Positions 1,583 to 35,359 of a stretch of 35,471 nt of DNA are shown here, one piece after another. The notes beneath the pieces were generated by a model that searched no databases, was not told the DNA's origin, and saw only the letters and a program-made list of their open reading frames with translations. The stretch is from IMG/VR virus record IMGVR_UViG_3300035562_000014, positions 1-35,471 of that record. The stretch is one strand, 5' to 3'. The first letter of the stretch is position 1, and each line of letters begins with the position of its first letter. This stretch comes from a virus (lineage: Duplodnaviria > Caudoviricetes). Made by a program: the position numbers and the translations under genes.

Positions 1583-4231
1583 CTATACAACTCCTTTAAA
1601 CGAAATTCCGCTAAGAGATAGCCACGCCCCACTTGTCATACCATACACTTTAATATTTCCGTCAGGTTCAATAAGAACTCGAGCGTTTACAGCATCTGCC
1701 CACACAACCTGTCGGGTCACAAAGCGAGGGCTTACGTTAGGTGGTAATGTGTAAATTATACTGCCGTTACCGGGATTACCACCGGCGGTATAGTTAAGCA
1801 ATCCATCTAATGTTAACGTCCCGGCGGGATCACGCGACCAGCGTGGGGTATCGTCTCCACTACCTAAAGACCAGCCAGCGCCAACCATTCCTGTGAGAGG
1901 TTTTTGGGGAGTATTCATATCTCCGCCCGGGGCAAGCAACCCACAAATTGCGTTATAGAACGCCCTCGCAAACAAATATCCCGTGTTAGGCGTGGGGTGT
2001 ATGTTGTCGTTAACCGTTGAATCTTTATCGCTGAGATTTGGATCTATAACATATTCAGGAAATACAGGCCCGATAACCTGATTCATTTCAATAAATTTAA
2101 CTTTAAGTTCGGCGCATAGATAGCGCAGGCCCGAGCGATGATATTTTCCAAGCCCGCTTCGCGTGGTTGGTTGCCCTTTACCACCGGTCTGCTCCCTTCC
2201 GTAATAAATGGTCGGACAAGCCACTATAACCTGATTTCCATTATTGATAGCGTTATTTATCATATAACGCATATTTGCAAGATACGATGCACCAGTAACA
2301 CCACCCTGAATATCATTAACCCCAACCATGATTAAACACAGGTTATAATTACCTAAATTAACATTATCCATTACCGTTCTTTGCGCTGCGGAATCATCAC
2401 CTGGTCGTGCAAAGTTATCTACAGTGGCAAATCGGTAGCCGTTCATAGCATCTAAAGAATATTTCAATACAGAGGGCCATGACGCCCCTAGAGCATCTGA
2501 AGAAATGCTATCACCAAAGCAGCAGACATGTAGGTATCTACCTGTTTCTCGTGTCGCATTCAGGCGACGCGTGAGGCTCGTTACAGTAAGATTTCCTATA
2601 CCTCCAACACCAAATCCAATATCTCTGATTTCACCCAGAGACGAATCAGTTACGGTGTCTATAGCAAACCCATTAAGCATCAACGTAAAACTTGTCGCAG
2701 AGTTTCTCCTTACAGTGATATCACTCATAAAGAATTTATACGCCGGTGATGAATTCATTCCCTGATAGATTAAATCACCAGTTATAACACTACCTCCAGT
2801 CCTTATATTACGAACTGGATTAGACGTATCATTAGCATTACAGTTATACCAGATCCTACCAGCGGAAAAGTTAACCATTACAACCGCTATTGTCGTAGCC
2901 GATGAAGACGGCGCATCAAAATGACAGGATAACTCTTCACCATCTGATATGTGCGCGAACCCAATGGACTGTTTGTTGACATCTGACGAGGTAAGAATAT
3001 AACCGGATTCACTGGTAGCAGTAGGCGCAATTACGCTGGAAGTATCCAGACCCTGATCAAACTGCCTGTAATACATACCAACTGCAAGATCGCTTTGGTT
3101 AGGGTAAACCGGCTCAACTTTTGAAAAATCACGGTCTGCCGGACTTATCCAGACAGGCCTGTCAGCAGCACCAACGCCCAGGCTCTGAGGATAGGTGAAG
3201 TAAACATCCTGATTTGTATAATGCAGTTTAACCTCGGAAGCAAAGCGCGCTGTTGAGCTGATATAACCGCCATCAACTGTAGACAGAATAACGCCTTTAT
3301 CGGTTTTCAATATTCGGTTATTAGTCCATGCTGCGCTTGTTCCGATTCCGAGTTTGTAGTTACGCCCACCGATAGCAGGAAAATATATAGTCCCCCATTC
3401 GCCTACGGCTGCAGCAGCTTTCTGTAGTGCAACGGCGTTATCAGTGACACCATCACCAGATGCGGGAACGTTTGGAGCAACCTCAAAATCGAGGATATTA
3501 ACCAGACGCTTATTAACTTCATGCTGCGTAGTCGCCGCACTACCATCATACGGCTGTTTCACGCCGATTAGAGCATCGCCTTTTCCATCTGCGGTACTTG
3601 CCAGGTCTATCAGTACATCTGCGGCAGAGCCGGATTCAGGAAGAACCGATATCGGATTTCCTTCATTGTTAAATGCCAGCAAATGATTTGCCCGTGCAAC
3701 AGCAGGTGGCAACGACGCAACAAAGGTTTCTGGAACACGCAGAGTTTTATTGAGGTTAATCTGCCCCTGGCTCTGTACCCACCGCTTAGTTGCCGCATCG
3801 GTATCGTTAACCGGGTCAGCAAGATTAGCGATGCGATAACCCTCTGCGTTATACGGGCCGCCAAATAACGAACGCCGCAATGCCAGCCCGAGATAAATAA
3901 ACGAGCGCTGTATCGCCATCCAGATGCGGTCAAAATCTTTGTTAACCGTATCAGCGAGTAAATCGCCGTTATCCTGATAATCAGTTAACCGGAATGTTGG
4001 CACAACGCGTTCAAGCATCACCGTCGCACCATTGGCGGGCGGAGTGAGGAACGTTACATCACCGCCGCTGACATTCCCCACACCGGCGATGGTGTAACCG
4101 GTGGTCACGATATTACCGTTGATGGTGACCTGCAGATCGTTCGCCGTGATGAGATAAAACTCGTAAGTAAAAACGGTACTCAGACCGTTTGCGGTATAAA
4201 TATTGTATGGGGTCTGATTGGGCACCGACAT
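1583..4231 (-). CDS. Tailspike/tail fibre with SGNH (GDSL) esterase domain
   Basis: Podovirus tail-attachment N-terminus; GDGVTDN motif; SGNH blocks FGDSIS, GVND, DNIHP; AT-richer central part. Confidence 0.85.
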   Translation of the reverse strand: MSVPNQTPYNIYTANGLSTVFTYEFYLITANDLQVTINGNIVTTGYTIAGVGNVSGGDVTFLTPPANGATVMLERVVPTFRLTDYQDNGDLLADTVNKDFDRIWMAIQRSFIYLGLALRRSLFGGPYNAEGYRIANLADPVNDTDAATKRWVQSQGQINLNKTLRVPETFVASLPPAVARANHLLAFNNEGNPISVLPESGSAADVLIDLASTADGKGDALIGVKQPYDGSAATTQHEVNKRLVNILDFEVAPNVPASGDGVTDNAVALQKAAAAVGEWGTIYFPAIGGRNYKLGIGTSAAWTNNRILKTDKGVILSTVDGGYISSTARFASEVKLHYTNQDVYFTYPQSLGVGAADRPVWISPADRDFSKVEPVYPNQSDLAVGMYYRQFDQGLDTSSVIAPTATSESGYILTSSDVNKQSIGFAHISDGEELSCHFDAPSSSATTIAVVMVNFSAGRIWYNCNANDTSNPVRNIRTGGSVITGDLIYQGMNSSPAYKFFMSDITVRRNSATSFTLMLNGFAIDTVTDSSLGEIRDIGFGVGGIGNLTVTSLTRRLNATRETGRYLHVCCFGDSISSDALGASWPSVLKYSLDAMNGYRFATVDNFARPGDDSAAQRTVMDNVNLGNYNLCLIMVGVNDIQGGVTGASYLANMRYMINNAINNGNQVIVACPTIYYGREQTGGKGQPTTRSGLGKYHRSGLRYLCAELKVKFIEMNQVIGPVFPEYVIDPNLSDKDSTVNDNIHPTPNTGYLFARAFYNAICGLLAPGGDMNTPQKPLTGMVGAGWSLGSGDDTPRWSRDPAGTLTLDGLLNYTAGGNPGNGSIIYTLPPNVSPRFVTRQVVWADAVNARVLIEPDGNIKVYGMTSGAWLSLSGISFKGVV

Positions 4232-15137: not shown

Positions 15138-15701
15138 TCAGAACCTCGACTCGTACGTTGGGTATCCGCCCAGCTCTTCCGGCGGCTCTTCCTGACCGTC
15201 GACGGCTTTAGCCTGTTTCAACAGAAAGTTAGCCTCTTGTGTCAGCGTGTCGCGCAGACTGGTGGAGGCGGTGACGGCATAGGCCAGCTTTGCCTGCATC
15301 ATCACTTCAGCCACGTCGACGAGCGCCGCATCCCACGTGGATTCATCCTCATTGCGGAAGACATAGCGCAGTCGCACCACCTGAACATCGGTCAGCAGCC
15401 GGTTGCCCTCGATGCGGTACGGAATATCGTCGTGTGGCTCACCAACGGAAAGAACGCGGAGCAAGTCGCCCGGCAGCGCAAACTGAAAGGAAAAACCAAA
15501 CGCAGGCGTAGTACTCACGGGAGAGAGAACCAGACGCTTAATCGCGCAGTTCCACGGGTGGGAGCGCAGGATTTTATTGCGAACGGTGGGATAAAGATTT
15601 GAGCAGAGCCGGGCGTGATCGGTATCCTCGTCGAAACTGTTAATGGGGTGCGCCCCCAGCGCCAGCAGTGCGTTTGAACAGATTGCTACACTCGAAGTCA
15701 T
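15138..15701 (-). CDS. Tail tubular protein A (adaptor)
   Basis: ICSNALLALG, HPWNCA, LPGDLLRV motifs; follows the capsid gene. Confidence 0.88.
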   Translation of the reverse strand: MTSSVAICSNALLALGAHPINSFDEDTDHARLCSNLYPTVRNKILRSHPWNCAIKRLVLSPVSTTPAFGFSFQFALPGDLLRVLSVGEPHDDIPYRIEGNRLLTDVQVVRLRYVFRNEDESTWDAALVDVAEVMMQAKLAYAVTASTSLRDTLTQEANFLLKQAKAVDGQEEPPEELGGYPTYESRF

Positions 15702-21306: not shown

Positions 21307-23481
21307 AGGTTGGGTCACTGCCTCAAATATGCGAGTCATTTTCCCGTCAACACGACGCTGAACGCGCTTATAACCGCAATTTTGCAAAACATTACTAATT
21401 CGCATTTCTTCGCGCTTTCCAATGTTTCGCGGGTCGAGGCCAATTGCATCACACAGAACGTCACTGGCGCGTAAAAATTCGCAGTTTCGTGGTATGTCCT
21501 GGGTCATAAGGTCAGGCGTATCGAGCCACTTCTCGACCGTCTCGAGCCACGCGTCCTTAATGGTGTACTGCTCGTGGACACTCGCGCCGAGGCGTTCAGC
21601 ATCGCGGAACTGGATACCGCCGAGGCGCTTAAACGTCTCTCGGGCCTCCGCCCACAGCAAAAGCTGGTCGCTTTTTATCGCTTTCACGTCGACTTTCGAC
21701 ACCTCCACGGGCAGCCAACGACGGTTACCGGTCTTATCCGCGAGGAATTCGTCCTCGTTGGTAGTACCGACGAACACCAGGCGGCGCGGGAACTGGGTAG
21801 CGAACTCACGATATTTAGGGATCCAGTTCTCATGCGTGCGCGTCACGAATGCCTTAATGCTTTCGAGCTCTTTGGTATTGAGGCCGCGCAGCTCGCCAAT
21901 CTCCGCCACCAGGCGACCGCGCATCTTGCGCGCGAGGTCGTCGTCTTTTTCAGCGAAGGATATCTCGGTGAAGAACGCCGGGTCGGGGCTGAGCGCTTCA
22001 ACGCCGGAGGACTTACCGCAGCCCTGAGGACCGACGAGAATAGGTACCATGTCGGCTTTGATACCAGGCTCCAGCACCCTGCCCGCCAGCGCCGTCCACA
22101 TATACATGGACACCGCCCGGGTGTACGGCGTATCGGCGGTACCGAAGTGCGTGTGGTAGAAAGATTCGATGCGCGGCACGCCGTCCCACTCCAGCCCGTT
22201 CAGCCAGGTGACCGCCGAATCGAACGGCTGTTCGTCAGCAGCCAGCAGCACCACGTCGCGGATGAGCTCGCGCCCTACCGGTTTAAACCCGCGCTTTTCC
22301 ATCGTGATGCGCAGGCGCGCGTAGTCTGCGTCGGTGAACGCCTGCCACTGGCCGGAGCCTGCCTGTGCGAACATGATTTCGTCGCGGAACTGGTCAAAGC
22401 GAATATCGATATCCACAAAGTCAGCGCGTACGACCGCTTTGGCCGCATTGCTGATTGTCGACTCGATGCGGCCCCACTTATCGCGCTCGAACGCGGGCAG
22501 CGGTAACGGCTCCGCAACGTCGGTGCTGGTCAGGTCTTCGAAATCGTCGTTGCGGATCCCGATGGCATTAAGGAAATCACCGTCGTTGCGGTGAGCGCAG
22601 CTGGCGTGCAGGCATTTGAAGTGCCCGAGGTCAAAGCCCGCGGTACCGGCGGGGAAGTAAACCGTACTGGTCGGGTCGCCGCCGGTGCTGTGGCCATCCT
22701 CAAACGGGCAGCGGATATAGCGTTCGCCGTTGGCGCCATCCAGCAGCGTCCAGCCGTTAGCATCCAGATAATCCGCTGTCTCATCCGTGGCGCCGGGCGT
22801 GAACGTCGAGCGGTCGCGCATCTTCGTGCTGCCCGCTTCGGTGGTGACCGACACAGGGAGCTGATCCGCCAGGCGCTGCCACAGCGTTTCAAGCTGTTCG
22901 GCAGTAACGACCGGCGGCTCATCCGGCAGTCCGCCGTCCCACTCAATACGTGCGCCACTGCTGTGTGTGCCGCAGGCAACGAACTGCTGCCCGTTAGCCA
23001 GCAGCTCAATAATGCCGAGCTCGCCTTCCAGCCGGTGGATACGCTTACGGAAATCGCCATCCACGGCCAGCAGGTACAGGCATTTATTGCTGTTGGCGCG
23101 CCAACGTCGCGGCGGGAGCTCGCCCAGCAGCTGCACCAGCGTTTTGCGAATATCGGCCTGGATGTCTTCATCTTCGCTGTCGCAGTCCAGCGCCAGCCAG
23201 CCAAAGCCCGTGCGCACGCAAATGCCGTAGTCGGGTTCTTTCGACCAGCGGGCAAAGTCATGCTCAGTGACGACGTGCTCCGTCCAGTCCTTGATGCCCG
23301 CAGCCAGACGGTCACGGTTGTAGAGGCTCGGCGTTTTGCCCAGCGCTTTCAGTTTGCTGTTAGGGGAAATAACCGCGCCCGGGTTGCACACGACCGGCAG
23401 CAGCTGGTCGGTACGCCCCAGCACCAGGTCGAAGTGGAACCATTCATCAGGCGTCGCCCCCCAGTTCTTAATCTCTGGCAT
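21289..23481 (-). CDS. Primase-polymerase / VirE (VapE)-like helicase fusion
   Basis: N-terminal LALDCD prim-pol motif, CPF-H/CLHASC Zn motif, Walker A GPQGCGKS, FVGTTN, TGNRRW. Confidence 0.9.
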   Translation of the reverse strand: MPEIKNWGATPDEWFHFDLVLGRTDQLLPVVCNPGAVISPNSKLKALGKTPSLYNRDRLAAGIKDWTEHVVTEHDFARWSKEPDYGICVRTGFGWLALDCDSEDEDIQADIRKTLVQLLGELPPRRWRANSNKCLYLLAVDGDFRKRIHRLEGELGIIELLANGQQFVACGTHSSGARIEWDGGLPDEPPVVTAEQLETLWQRLADQLPVSVTTEAGSTKMRDRSTFTPGATDETADYLDANGWTLLDGANGERYIRCPFEDGHSTGGDPTSTVYFPAGTAGFDLGHFKCLHASCAHRNDGDFLNAIGIRNDDFEDLTSTDVAEPLPLPAFERDKWGRIESTISNAAKAVVRADFVDIDIRFDQFRDEIMFAQAGSGQWQAFTDADYARLRITMEKRGFKPVGRELIRDVVLLAADEQPFDSAVTWLNGLEWDGVPRIESFYHTHFGTADTPYTRAVSMYMWTALAGRVLEPGIKADMVPILVGPQGCGKSSGVEALSPDPAFFTEISFAEKDDDLARKMRGRLVAEIGELRGLNTKELESIKAFVTRTHENWIPKYREFATQFPRRLVFVGTTNEDEFLADKTGNRRWLPVEVSKVDVKAIKSDQLLLWAEARETFKRLGGIQFRDAERLGASVHEQYTIKDAWLETVEKWLDTPDLMTQDIPRNCEFLRASDVLCDAIGLDPRNIGKREEMRISNVLQNCGYKRVQRRVDGKMTRIFEAVTQPVPASK

Positions 23482-23690: not shown

Positions 23691-23755
23691 AGGTTAAGAA
23701 AACTAAACATATAAGTCAAGAAAACGATACCCTAAATAAGTTAAGCTAACTAAAC
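23691..23755 (-). promoter_or_regulatory. PR-like promoter with three operators
   Basis: TTGACT(23719-23714)-17 bp-TAACCT; GTTWAG-N4-CTWAAC-like sites at 23693, 23715 and 23740. Confidence 0.8.
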
Positions 23756-23773
23756 CATATGAGGGGTAACACC

Positions 23774-24466
23774 ATGATTAACGAACGTATTCGCGAAGCA
23801 CGCCGCAATGTAAAAATGACGCAGGAAGCGCTAGCAAAACGTATAGGTTTGACCAAAGCGACCATTTCACAGTGGGAGTCTGGCACCACAACGCCAAACG
23901 GTAAGAACCTGATAAACTTGGCGGAAACGCTGAATGTTTCCCCTGAATGGTTGCTTACTGGCAAAGGTGCAGAGCAAAAACCGATTTCCTCCAACGCACG
24001 TGTAGAGGGCAGCTTTTCAGTATGGGATTCAGCCACACCGTTAGAGGATGATGAAGTGGAAATACCTTTCTATCAGGAGATAGAGTTATCTGCCGGAAAT
24101 GGTACGTATGTAGATCTTAACCGCTCAGGCTGCAAACTTCGTTTTGCGAAGTCTACCCTGCGCAAAGCCGGTGTTGATGTAGCCTGTGCCGCCTGCGTAA
24201 GCGTACACGGTAACAGTATGGAACCGGTGTTACCTGATGGCGCGGTTGTAGGTGTCGACACGTCTAAAACAGGCATTAAAGACGGTCAAATGTATGCGGT
24301 AGACCACGACGGTTTGTTACGTGTAAAACTGCTTTATCGGCTGCCTGGCGGGATTCGCGTTCGTTCTTTCAACCGTGATGAATACGCTGACGAGGAATAT
24401 TTCGACCATGATGCTAACAAGATAAAAATTATTGGTCAGGTTTTCTGGTATTCAGTTCTTCTTTAA
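23774..24466 (+). CDS. cI: CI-like repressor (HTH plus S24 peptidase domain)
   Basis: N-terminal HTH, LSAGNG cleavage site, GNSMEP Ser, VKLL Lys; GAGGGG RBS before ATG 23774. Confidence 0.95.
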   Translation: MINERIREARRNVKMTQEALAKRIGLTKATISQWESGTTTPNGKNLINLAETLNVSPEWLLTGKGAEQKPISSNARVEGSFSVWDSATPLEDDEVEIPFYQEIELSAGNGTYVDLNRSGCKLRFAKSTLRKAGVDVACAACVSVHGNSMEPVLPDGAVVGVDTSKTGIKDGQMYAVDHDGLLRVKLLYRLPGGIRVRSFNRDEYADEEYFDHDANKIKIIGQVFWYSVLL

Positions 24467-24492: not shown

Positions 24493-24519
24493 AGCCCGCT
24501 ATTCAGCGGGCTTTTCTTT
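24493..24519 (+). terminator. Terminator after cI
   Basis: AGCCCGCT-ATTC-AGCGGGCT followed by TTTCTTT. Confidence 0.8.
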
Positions 24520-24535: not shown

Positions 24536-24615
24536 GTACAACTTTCTTAACCTCCACTCTTGACTTTAAGGGTTTAGAGGTCTTAACTATGCATCAAAGG
24601 TTAAGTTATCTATAC
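24536..24615 (+). promoter_or_regulatory. PL-like promoter with three operators
   Basis: TTGACT(24560-24565)-17 bp-TTAACT; operator-like 16-mers at 24536, 24572 and 24600. Confidence 0.8.
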
Positions 24616-24635
24616 CAAACACAAAACGTAATATT

Positions 24636-24647
24636 TGCTCTTTAACA
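24636..24647 (+). promoter_or_regulatory. boxA antitermination element
   Basis: TGCTCTTTAACA, the rrn-type consensus, about 40 nt after the predicted PL start. Confidence 0.8.
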
Positions 24648-24841
24648 ACTTGAACCGCGTGACAGGTAAGCCGCTATGCTCCTGGCAACAAAATGGCACC
24701 CGATAGGATCGAGGTAAGCGCCGAGTCCGTATGCGTACGGTAAGCGTAGAGGACCACACCGCGACGAGCTGATAAGTCACGCAAGTTGAACGCCCCGACG
24801 ATGGGGCGCGCAGTGAATTAATCAAAGGCTTCGGGCCTTTT
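24646..24841 (+). ncRNA. Putative structured leader RNA
   Basis: Long-range pairing of 24646-24663 with 24776-24788, internal hairpins, two further hairpins, no credible sense ORF. Confidence 0.5.
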
Positions 24842-24867
24842 ACTAATCCACAGAAAGGACAAACACA

Positions 24868-25038
24868 ATGAGCAAATTTCCGCAGGTTCGCTACTTCGCA
24901 TCCCGCAAGAACAAGTTTATTGAAATCACTCATGCGCCAGTGAATGGCGTCAGCACCAAAGCTACCAAGCCCGTTAACGGCAAAGCCGAAGCGCGCCAGA
25001 TTACCAAAGAATTGAACGGCGTCGCCTGGAACTTCTAA
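24868..25038 (+). CDS. 56-aa basic hypothetical protein, first early gene
   Basis: Hand translation MSKFPQVRYFASRKNKFIEITHAPVNGVSTKATKPVNGKAEARQITKELNGVAWNF; AAGGA RBS. Confidence 0.75.
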   Translation: MSKFPQVRYFASRKNKFIEITHAPVNGVSTKATKPVNGKAEARQITKELNGVAWNF

Positions 25039-25042
25039 CCCC

Positions 25043-25104
25043 ATCCCCTGAATCATCCATTGCTGTGTGTAGTCTTTGCCCGTCTCCCTGGCGGGCTTTT
25101 TTTT
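25043..25104 (+). ncRNA. RprA-like small RNA (3' seed plus terminator)
   Basis: ATTGCTGTGTGTAGTCTTTGCCC matches the recalled RprA 3' region; upstream ATCCCCTGA also matches; terminator stem with compensatory changes and T8. Confidence 0.75.
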
Positions 25105-25162
25105 CATGCCTGAAAGCGCATTCAGTGCAGTGCGCTCCCCGACATGAAAAGGAGCACCACCG

Positions 25163-25312
25163 ATGAAACCTGAAAACATCCACCGGTTGACGGGGCGCGA
25201 CGTGCTCCGCTACCGCCGTAAGCACTTCGATTTAATCACCGGTCTGGCCCTCGCTACCGCGTTCGGCCTGGCTATTACCTTCATTCTCCTTGTAGCGAGG
25301 ACCGCAGTATGA
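25163..25312 (+). CDS. 49-aa single-pass membrane protein
   Basis: [49 protein letters not shown]; AAGGAG RBS; ATGA-coupled to the next gene. Confidence 0.75.
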   Translation: MKPENIHRLTGRDVLRYRRKHFDLITGLALATAFGLAITFILLVARTAV

Positions 25313-31527: not shown

Positions 31528-32370
31528 ATGGTCGTATCCAGAAAAATTAAATCTCCCGCGCTTCGCTATCACGGTTCTAAATTCCGATTAGCCAACTGGA
31601 TAATTAATTTTTTCCCTGACCACCACACGTATGTAGAACCATTTGGCGGCGGCGCTGGTGTTCTATTAAGAAAACAGCGTAGCTATGCCGAAATTTATAA
31701 TGATATCGACGAGGATATTGTTAATTTCTTCCAAGTGGTCAGGGATCCGGAATTAAATAGCCGGTTGCGAAATCTATGCGCGCTAACCCCTTACGCCCGT
31801 GCCGAATTTAGAGCTGCATTAACTGAGTCAGCGGATCCGGTAGAAAGAGCCCGCAGAACAGCAGTACGCGCGATGATGGGTTTTGGCTCAGCTGGAGCAA
31901 CCCAAAAAGACAACGGTTTTAGTATCGATGCAAAGCGCAAATATAAAACGGTCATGGACGTTTGGGCACGATATCCGGATCGACTGGCGGCCATCGGTGA
32001 ACGCTTCACTGGTGTTCTGATTGAGAACCGCCCCGCAACTCAGGTAATGCGCCAACATGACGCCGAAAGCACATTGCACAACGTAGACCCACCCTATCTA
32101 CCGGCGACACGAGATAAGGGAGGAAATCGCAGATACCGGCACGAAATGAGCGAAGAAGATCATATATTTTTGCTGCAAGAACTTCGGTCATTACAAGGCT
32201 ATGTAGTGTTATCTGGCTATGAATCAGACCTCTATAACGATCTGCTTCCTGAGTGGCATAAATCACAAACTAAATCGCGGATATCTGCCGGGCGCGGCAC
32301 AAAGGTAAATACCGAATGCGTCTGGTTGAATCCGCAATGCGTGGAGCAACTCGCACGTGACCTCATCTAA
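31528..32370 (+). CDS. Orphan DNA adenine methyltransferase (Dam/D12 class)
   Basis: YHGSK, EPFGGGAGV SAM motif, YNDID, DPPY. Confidence 0.9.
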   Translation: MVVSRKIKSPALRYHGSKFRLANWIINFFPDHHTYVEPFGGGAGVLLRKQRSYAEIYNDIDEDIVNFFQVVRDPELNSRLRNLCALTPYARAEFRAALTESADPVERARRTAVRAMMGFGSAGATQKDNGFSIDAKRKYKTVMDVWARYPDRLAAIGERFTGVLIENRPATQVMRQHDAESTLHNVDPPYLPATRDKGGNRRYRHEMSEEDHIFLLQELRSLQGYVVLSGYESDLYNDLLPEWHKSQTKSRISAGRGTKVNTECVWLNPQCVEQLARDLI

Positions 32371-35284: not shown

Positions 35285-35359
35285 GTCCCCTTAGTTAAAT
35301 GGATATAACGAGCCCCTCCTAAGGGCTAGTTGCAGGTTCGATTCCTGCAGGGGACACCA
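35285..35359 (+). tRNA. argW: tRNA-Arg(CCT); first 20 bp are the right att core
   Basis: Acceptor stem GTCCCCT/GGGGAC, anticodon arm AGCCC-CTCCTAA-GGGCT, GTTCGATT T-loop, encoded CCA. Confidence 0.95.

Follow-up and report, generated by a model that had tools for sequence, protein, structure and literature searches.

Why would a temperate phage carry, within its early operon, a short stretch of DNA that reads like the 3' end of the host small RNA RprA, and would an RNA made from it act on the host? We addressed this question in an IMG/VR virus record of 35.5 kb, the whole of which was analyzed and is referred to here as the window. An initial annotation had proposed that the phage encodes a mimic of RprA. 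Its interpretation was supported in part, and our analyses lead us to consider that the cassette is likely a functional phage mimic of the processed form of that RNA. The argument is built on the match to rprA, the conservation of the matching segment among phages, its predicted pairing with host mRNAs, and two prophage RNAs of Escherichia coli K-12 that were found to share it.

The cassette and its place in the early operon

The window represents a temperate phage. An integrase and an attachment tRNA lie at its right end, and its other genes encode a podovirus-type head, internal virion proteins and a replication block comprising an exonuclease, a single-stranded DNA-binding protein, a DNA polymerase and a helicase. 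The tRNA (35285-35356; Rfam, 66.4 bits) lies just past the integrase and is the likely attachment site; no exact match to it was found in the loci compared. A DNA methyltransferase is encoded within the replication block (31528-32370). Among E. coli prophages, the top matches reach 73% identity to the phage, and its relatives point to a probable host in the Enterobacteriaceae.

Behind the gene for a CI-like repressor are two operator-like repeats (Table 1) matching a 16-nt palindrome-like repeat that occurs twice in the cI-cro gap (23693-23708 and 23740-23755). A scan for this repeat gave nine matches compared with 1.9 expected, and none of 100 shuffles did as well. The boxA-like site that follows, called with what we take to be the boxA consensus, is also found upstream of the cassette in 46 of 71 relatives. 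On the strength of the operator repeats and the boxA-like site, the stretch from around position 24600 is probably the equivalent of the lambda PL leader. The leader between boxA and the 56-aa ORF (24650-24860) is long and structured and contains several hairpins. We found no N-like gene in the window, and no sigma-70 promoter passed a consensus scan. The cassette seed starts 20 nt past the 56-aa ORF, and the 49-aa ORF on the far side is followed by genes for a 299-aa protein, the exonuclease, the single-stranded DNA-binding protein and the DNA polymerase; the cassette terminator is the first terminator of this early replication operon. The position of the cassette, which flanks a gene on its 3' side and has operators of the repressor type upstream, supports the proposed origin of the RNA in a 3' untranslated region.

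Table 1. Features of the early region and of the RprA-like cassette, with positions in the window
Feature	Position	Strand	Remark
CI-like repressor (HTH + S24 peptidase)	23759..24466	+	own terminator at 24493-24512, behind the gene
Two operator-like repeats (24572-24587, 24600-24615)	24572..24615	.	match the repeats of the cI-cro gap
boxA-like site	24636..24647	+	suggests read-through of the cassette terminator by antitermination
56-aa ORF, phrog_20574, function unassigned	24868..25038	+	swappable cargo; cassette in its 3' flank
9-nt match to RprA nt 39-47	25043..25051	+	likely left over from the captured gene
7-nt spacer	25052..25058	+	replaces the 12 nt between the first two blocks of RprA
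RprA 3' seed	25059..25077	+	identical to RprA nt 60-78; first base corresponds to the 5' end of processed RprA
RprA-type terminator stem, 7 pairs, 5-nt loop	25078..25096	+	pairing kept through changes
U8 tail	25097..25104	+	intrinsic terminator; predicted Hfq-binding end
49-aa ORF, phrog_11981	25163..25312	+	first gene past the cassette terminator

The cassette was compared to rprA as annotated in E. coli MG1655 (L241:573-678). Besides the 9-nt block, window positions 25059-25081 are identical to RprA nt 60-82 over 23 nt and the last 12 bases, 25093-25104, to nt 95-106; by chance, a given 23-mer is expected in the window about 1e-9 times. In the stem an A-U pair has become G-C and a U-A pair U-G, and the loop has 5 nt compared with 6 in RprA. 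Both identical blocks and these pairing-preserving changes, all of which the initial annotation had reported, were confirmed against the MG1655 gene. The predicted fold resembles that of RprA60-106 (-15.5 compared with -14.3 kcal/mol; z -4.2). Because contigs from three other studies (X2, X4 and X5) span the cassette, with 25059-25081 unchanged among the differences listed, it is not an assembly artefact.

The Rfam RprA model (RF00034), suggested as a check, recognized the copy in part: a match was found at 24995-25106 (48.7 bits, E 0.0026), but its score lies below the gathering score of 70. The 3' part of the family, that is, the seed and intrinsic terminator of nt 60-106, is present as the 23-nt identity, the 7-pair stem and the U8 tail, whereas the 5' hairpin and the segment responsible for rpoS and csgD site II pairing (nt 28-62) are absent apart from nt 39-47. 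The phage copy also differs from rprA in lying away from the chromosomal ydiK-ydiL locus. We regard the cassette as one that would work like processed RprA, yet not as a full member of RF00034.

RNase E cuts RprA at GA/AUU in a reaction requiring Hfq and U+2 (Chao et al., PMC5222698, as given in the available part), and RprA60-105 alone, when overproduced, lowers csgD mRNA and protein (Mika et al., PMC3465796, likewise in part). In the window, the 23-nt identity with RprA begins exactly at this cut; AUU with its U+2 is kept, but CC stands immediately 5' of the seed, so that the window lacks the purine found at -2 in the RNase E consensus. That purine is present in 14 of 37 distinct viral upstream contexts compared with 50 of 54 from genomes. 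GA/AUC at 25050-25054 may offer an alternative cut. When the complete transcript 24600-25104 is folded, most of the seed is predicted to be paired. Both the lost purine and the paired seed count against the function proposed below.

Conservation and spread of the seed

Relatives were chosen by their exonuclease and not by the seed. The best 80 of 348 IMG/VR matches were taken, and four with <2 kb upstream were dropped, leaving 76. Across these, the 22-mer was exact in 56, carried one change in 15 and was absent from five, so that 71 of 76 had it with at most one change. Substitutions were counted in the 66 distinct seed-bearing relatives, the five without the seed being left out. Over 1254 sites of seed nt 1-19 there were 14 differences from the window, compared with 5348 over 11322 fourfold sites (47%) and 2582 over 27110 second codon positions (9.5%) of the exonuclease, and silent divergence among the relatives keeping the cassette was 33-67%. 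Forty distinct stems, drawn from all viral loci, keep their pairing, with pair 5 being G-C in 17, A-U in 13, C-G in nine and unpaired in one; conservation of the single-stranded seed far exceeds that of the adjoining stem and loop. Taken at the level of sequence, these comparisons support purifying selection on the seed.

The upstream neighbour, by comparison, belongs to seven ORF families in 38 loci, and in 33 there is no ORF of at least 45 aa. Because the seed and the stem pairing are kept while upstream ORFs swap, the conserved unit is the seed with its terminator, whatever lies upstream. The 9-nt block is complete in 11 of 71 relatives and CTGA is found in 50 of 71; the block is likely a leftover of capture from an Enterobacteriaceae rprA and not a maintained second seed. 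In one relative (L267), an RprA-like terminator about 2070 bases upstream of the exonuclease carries a different, partly similar seed region, apparently a decayed or retargeted version.

The exact 22-mer is present in an estimated 210 or so IMG/VR stretches, in many unrelated upstream contexts, and is followed by a hairpin and a U run in all the IMG/VR copies listed; the seed on a long, DicF-like stem is found in about 840. Carriers include lambdoid, N4-like and jumbo phages as well as Klebsiella plasmids. The copy lies before kil in Cronobacter phiES15 and after the repressor in Escherichia phage LLS, and it stands immediately past a stop codon both in the jumbo phage pEa_SNUABM_1 and in the N4-like Erwinia phage Ea9-2, in the latter behind thymidylate synthase. 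HNH genes of T1-like phages were also considered as carriers, and their BLAST matches were weak and treated as chance. Plasmid matches came from 812 records, 740 of them Klebsiella. In the Klebsiella plasmid NZ_FO834905.1 (L410:4001-4059) the cassette, with one seed change, marks the end of a small ORF that has toxin-antitoxin genes around it, and its lead-in, TGAATCATCC, is the same as in the phage copy. Seed and terminator are also found in phages recorded from Stenotrophomonas and Aeromonas (L539:1201-1244 and L540:1201-1244), the genes of which are partly enterobacterial-looking. Searching 5426 E. coli genomes with the window cassette gave 6103 places in 5424 of them, several hundred beyond one rprA each. 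The 14-mer is not a general terminator motif, because only 21 of 301 genomes of a broad GTDB order have it (more than one copy in four; the reversed control was found once). As judged from these matches, the RprA-seed module is not a one-off and is widespread in phages and plasmids.

Two prophage RNAs of K-12 and the targets of the seed

The 14-mer has three copies in MG1655, in rprA, in kilS of the Rac prophage and in ymfH of e14. KilS (b4833; L244:12406-12503) has 16 nt identical to the RprA seed and a DicF-like terminator, and the bases 5' of its seed are AACGAC, where RprA has AACGA. It is Hfq-dependent, with an RNase E cut mapped next to the edge base of the seed; the RNA starts at a site of its own and builds up in stationary phase (Bar et al., 2021; PMC8175672), and it is produced in the lysogen. 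RprA is unmentioned in the main text of that paper (0 occurrences). The e14 RNA (L249:1696-1760, minus strand, inside annotated ymfH) is unannotated and likewise combines 16 nt of the RprA seed with a DicF-like terminator. Its seed was predicted from two partners that it shares with KilS and RprA, and was then found on reading the sequence.

Partners were taken from the RIL-seq data of Melamed et al. (PMC5145812), as the rows of supplement mmc3 returned for each query term, and all chimera counts given here refer to those rows. KilS formed chimeras with yncL (18, 211 and 12 in three conditions), ariR-ymgC (12) and uspF-ynaE (12). All three (3/3) are also partners of RprA, for which the counts were 64/1227/72, 161/2226/97 and 45, respectively. 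The e14 RNA is Hfq-enriched, with around 3000-3900 chimeric fragments per condition, and its partners were flhD, ybcM, ariR-ymgC, osmB, yncL and mepS, all but mepS (5/6) being among the 68 summary rows of RprA. Six of the seven distinct partners of KilS and the e14 RNA are thus shared with RprA out of about 2790 rows in total, a rough binomial probability of 1e-6 to 1e-9, uncorrected for hub targets. Mis-mapping is unlikely, since the prophage-side chimera coordinates lie in the prophage RNAs' own terminators, unlike those of RprA. The mRNAs of csgD and rpoS were absent from the seven partners at what is a low depth (772 fragments in stationary phase for KilS), and the rows for KilS and the e14 RNA held no hsdR chimeras. 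Both RNAs have a DicF-like stem, unlike the window, which carries the RprA seed on a 7-pair stem and has no match to the Rfam DicF model at E up to 1; their evidence consequently transfers to the phage cassette by analogy. The Hfq dependence and shared targets that had been foreseen for the phage RNA are therefore found for KilS and the e14 RNA, which have the same seed, and extend by analogy to the cassette.

We then computed the pairing of the window seed with candidate targets. Pairing with csgD site Ib (-99..-83) reached -24.2 kcal/mol, a value attained by 0 of 200 shuffles, and with ydaM +2..+14 it reached -15.8 kcal/mol (p ~0.03), both in agreement with the published sites. The three KilS partner fragments yncL, ymgC leader and uspF-ynaE paired at -18.7, -24.9 and -19.0 kcal/mol (2, 0 and 1 of 300 shuffles, respectively), as they do with RprA, and osmB paired at a level reached by 3 of 300 shuffles; pairing was not significant for rpoS or for the flhD, ybcM and yjiV fragments (28, 48 and 19 of 300 for these three). 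The window copy keeps the same 16-nt csgD pairing as RprA, and pairing at site Ia is nearly the same, whereas pairing with rpoS falls from -22.2 in RprA to -11.2 kcal/mol and with csgD site II from -19.9 to -10.4. That part of the rpoS-pairing segment had been lost was a claim of the initial annotation, and it is correct: most of RprA nt 28-59 is gone and the pairing is halved. With rpoS and csgD site II both weakened, the narrower target set that it had suggested also holds. Its proposal of an effect on ricI or on DNA entry found no support, the seed showing no significant pairing with E. coli ygaC, which we take to be the counterpart of that gene.

Two further leaders deserve mention. In MG1655 the leader of hsdR, the restriction subunit of the type I enzyme EcoKI, has an 11-base seed pairing beside the ribosome-binding site (L542 ~15262-15300, minus strand; -19.7 kcal/mol, 0/300 shuffles). 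Of 15 close hsdR homologues drawn from 401 genomes, which fall into three sequence types, 7 retain the site, and chimeras of RprA with this leader number 13 and 24, in the unified libraries only (PMC5145812, rows queried). About 40 bases before ymgC, the ymgC leader (L247 ~895-912) contains a 15-pair match to the RprA seed. This leader is among the strongest partners of RprA, and in the rows queried its sRNA-side partners are the three seed-bearing RNAs only (PMC5145812).

Function of the cassette and related phage RNAs

The course of events that we propose, and consider reasonably probable as a whole, starts from an early-operon first terminator fused to the exact RprA 3' seed. Transcripts would stop at 25104 and would be trimmed by RNase E, with a cut at or just before 25059, to an RNA of 46-53 nt that would bind Hfq and regulate host mRNAs in trans as processed RprA does, while antitermination would carry the remaining transcripts into the replication genes. 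Expression may come from the repressor-controlled promoter once the phage has infected or been induced, or through leak or a further promoter in the lysogen. If the CI-repressed promoter is the sole one, synthesis of the RNA would mostly be confined to infection or induction; KilS, by contrast, is a product of the lysogen. The phage would presumably benefit from lowered CsgD, with curli and cellulose, and from lowering of other envelope-related RprA targets, without an Rcs signal and largely without activation of rpoS.

An alternative that we consider unlikely is that the cassette is no more than a terminator taken over from the host, carrying a site for RNase E or Hfq and adjusting early-operon expression in cis while the seed hitch-hikes. 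Its position suits such a role, since it separates the leader from the replication genes and is preceded by boxA, as do the RNA data: six of 20 sequencing-run rows are RNA, with shares of up to 0.16, and the four of these runs examined are contigs of relatives, three of them with the cassette, that show neither ends, strand or level nor transcription for the phage. However, a terminator acting in cis would not lead one to expect a seed far more conserved than stem, loop and silent sites, the same seed on two unrelated stem types, or the pairing in trans of KilS and the e14 RNA with partners of RprA.

Rather improbable, too, is a decoy, in which the RNA would occupy Hfq, the sites of RprA or an RprA sponge (the ymgC-leader or yncL RNA) and so alter the activity of host RprA instead of repeating it. 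Of the shared partners, the two strongest, ariR-ymgC and yncL, show high enrichment on Hfq, and some chimeras carry ariR-ymgC in the sRNA position (PMC5145812, rows queried), which would fit a sponge, as would the missing csgD and rpoS chimeras of the two prophage RNAs. That absence rests, however, on the low depth noted above for KilS, and the ability of RprA60-105 by itself to repress csgD, together with the unchanged 16-nt csgD pairing of the window copy, argues for repetition of RprA activity.

We give very little weight to an antisense role of the C4/CI type on the phage's own transcripts. A 12-pair site is present in the primase-helicase gene (22956-22969, -22.3 kcal/mol), but 3 of 25 shuffled seeds find an equally good site in the phage genome, and in most relatives the pairing is lost through silent changes; we rejected it as a cis target, and the window has no second near-copy of the seed. 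Least probable of all is neutral, recent capture of a piece of host rprA: the 9-nt upstream match does point to an Enterobacteriaceae rprA as the source, but this reading is largely refuted by the conservation counts, the cassette being kept across the observed silent divergence and repeated upstream gene swaps and having copies in unrelated phage groups and plasmids.

A functional mimic of processed RprA can be set beside several known RNAs. It resembles RprA and RprA60-105 in the 23 nt from the RNase E cut site, the fold, the terminator, the U tail and the computed pairing with csgD site Ib and ydaM, and differs in having neither the 5' hairpin nor most of nt 28-59, no ydiK neighbour and no promoter found by scan. 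KilS and the e14 RNA are, like it, early-region RNAs of (pro)phages with the same seed, and are Hfq-bound with RprA partners; they differ in their long DicF-like stem and, for KilS, its own start site. DicF of the Qin prophage (PMC5069750, available part) is similarly a prophage early-operon Hfq sRNA with a terminator resembling, by eye, those of KilS and the e14 RNA; however, it targets ftsZ and has no RprA seed, the best match in the Qin locus having 4-5 mismatches in 14. AgvB mimics an mRNA target and not an sRNA (PMC4104026, available part). The nearest concept is StxS of Shiga toxin phages, a phage sRNA that arises as a by-product of an antiterminated promoter, is processed by RNase E and uses the rpoS site of the host sRNAs RprA, ArcZ and DsrA (PMC7547250). 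StxS is made from a late promoter, activates rpoS and is described, in the available part of that paper, as sharing a site and not as a copy of RprA sequence, whereas the phage cassette is itself a copy of the host sRNA, with much of its rpoS pairing gone.

The initial annotation knew of no earlier description of such a mimic, and the non-subscription literature searched, with the available part of a 2026 review (PMC13501541), likewise contained no description of RprA copies carried by phages. Convergence of phage sRNAs on the sites of host sRNAs is known; of a copied host seed spread over many groups of phages and over plasmids, the same literature offered no example. New here is that KilS and the e14 RNA carry the RprA seed and share RIL-seq partners of RprA. 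A much broader proposal, which we offer as speculative and would ourselves doubt, is that a portable RprA-seed sRNA module of enterobacterial temperate and lytic phages and plasmids, transferred from operon to operon and onto different terminators, seizes the 3'-seed arm of the RprA regulon and, in addition to acting on curli and envelope genes, blocks hsdR translation, making it an RNA anti-restriction device, and that K-12 has two overlooked RprA siblings that possibly mask rprA phenotypes.

If the mimic is real, mobile elements could activate a portion of the Rcs/RprA programme on demand. KilS gains a likely function, and the two prophage siblings, by sharing partners with RprA, provide a testable reason for the weak phenotypes of rprA knockouts in K-12. 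What a phage would gain from lowering curli, envelope or restriction genes likewise becomes directly testable.
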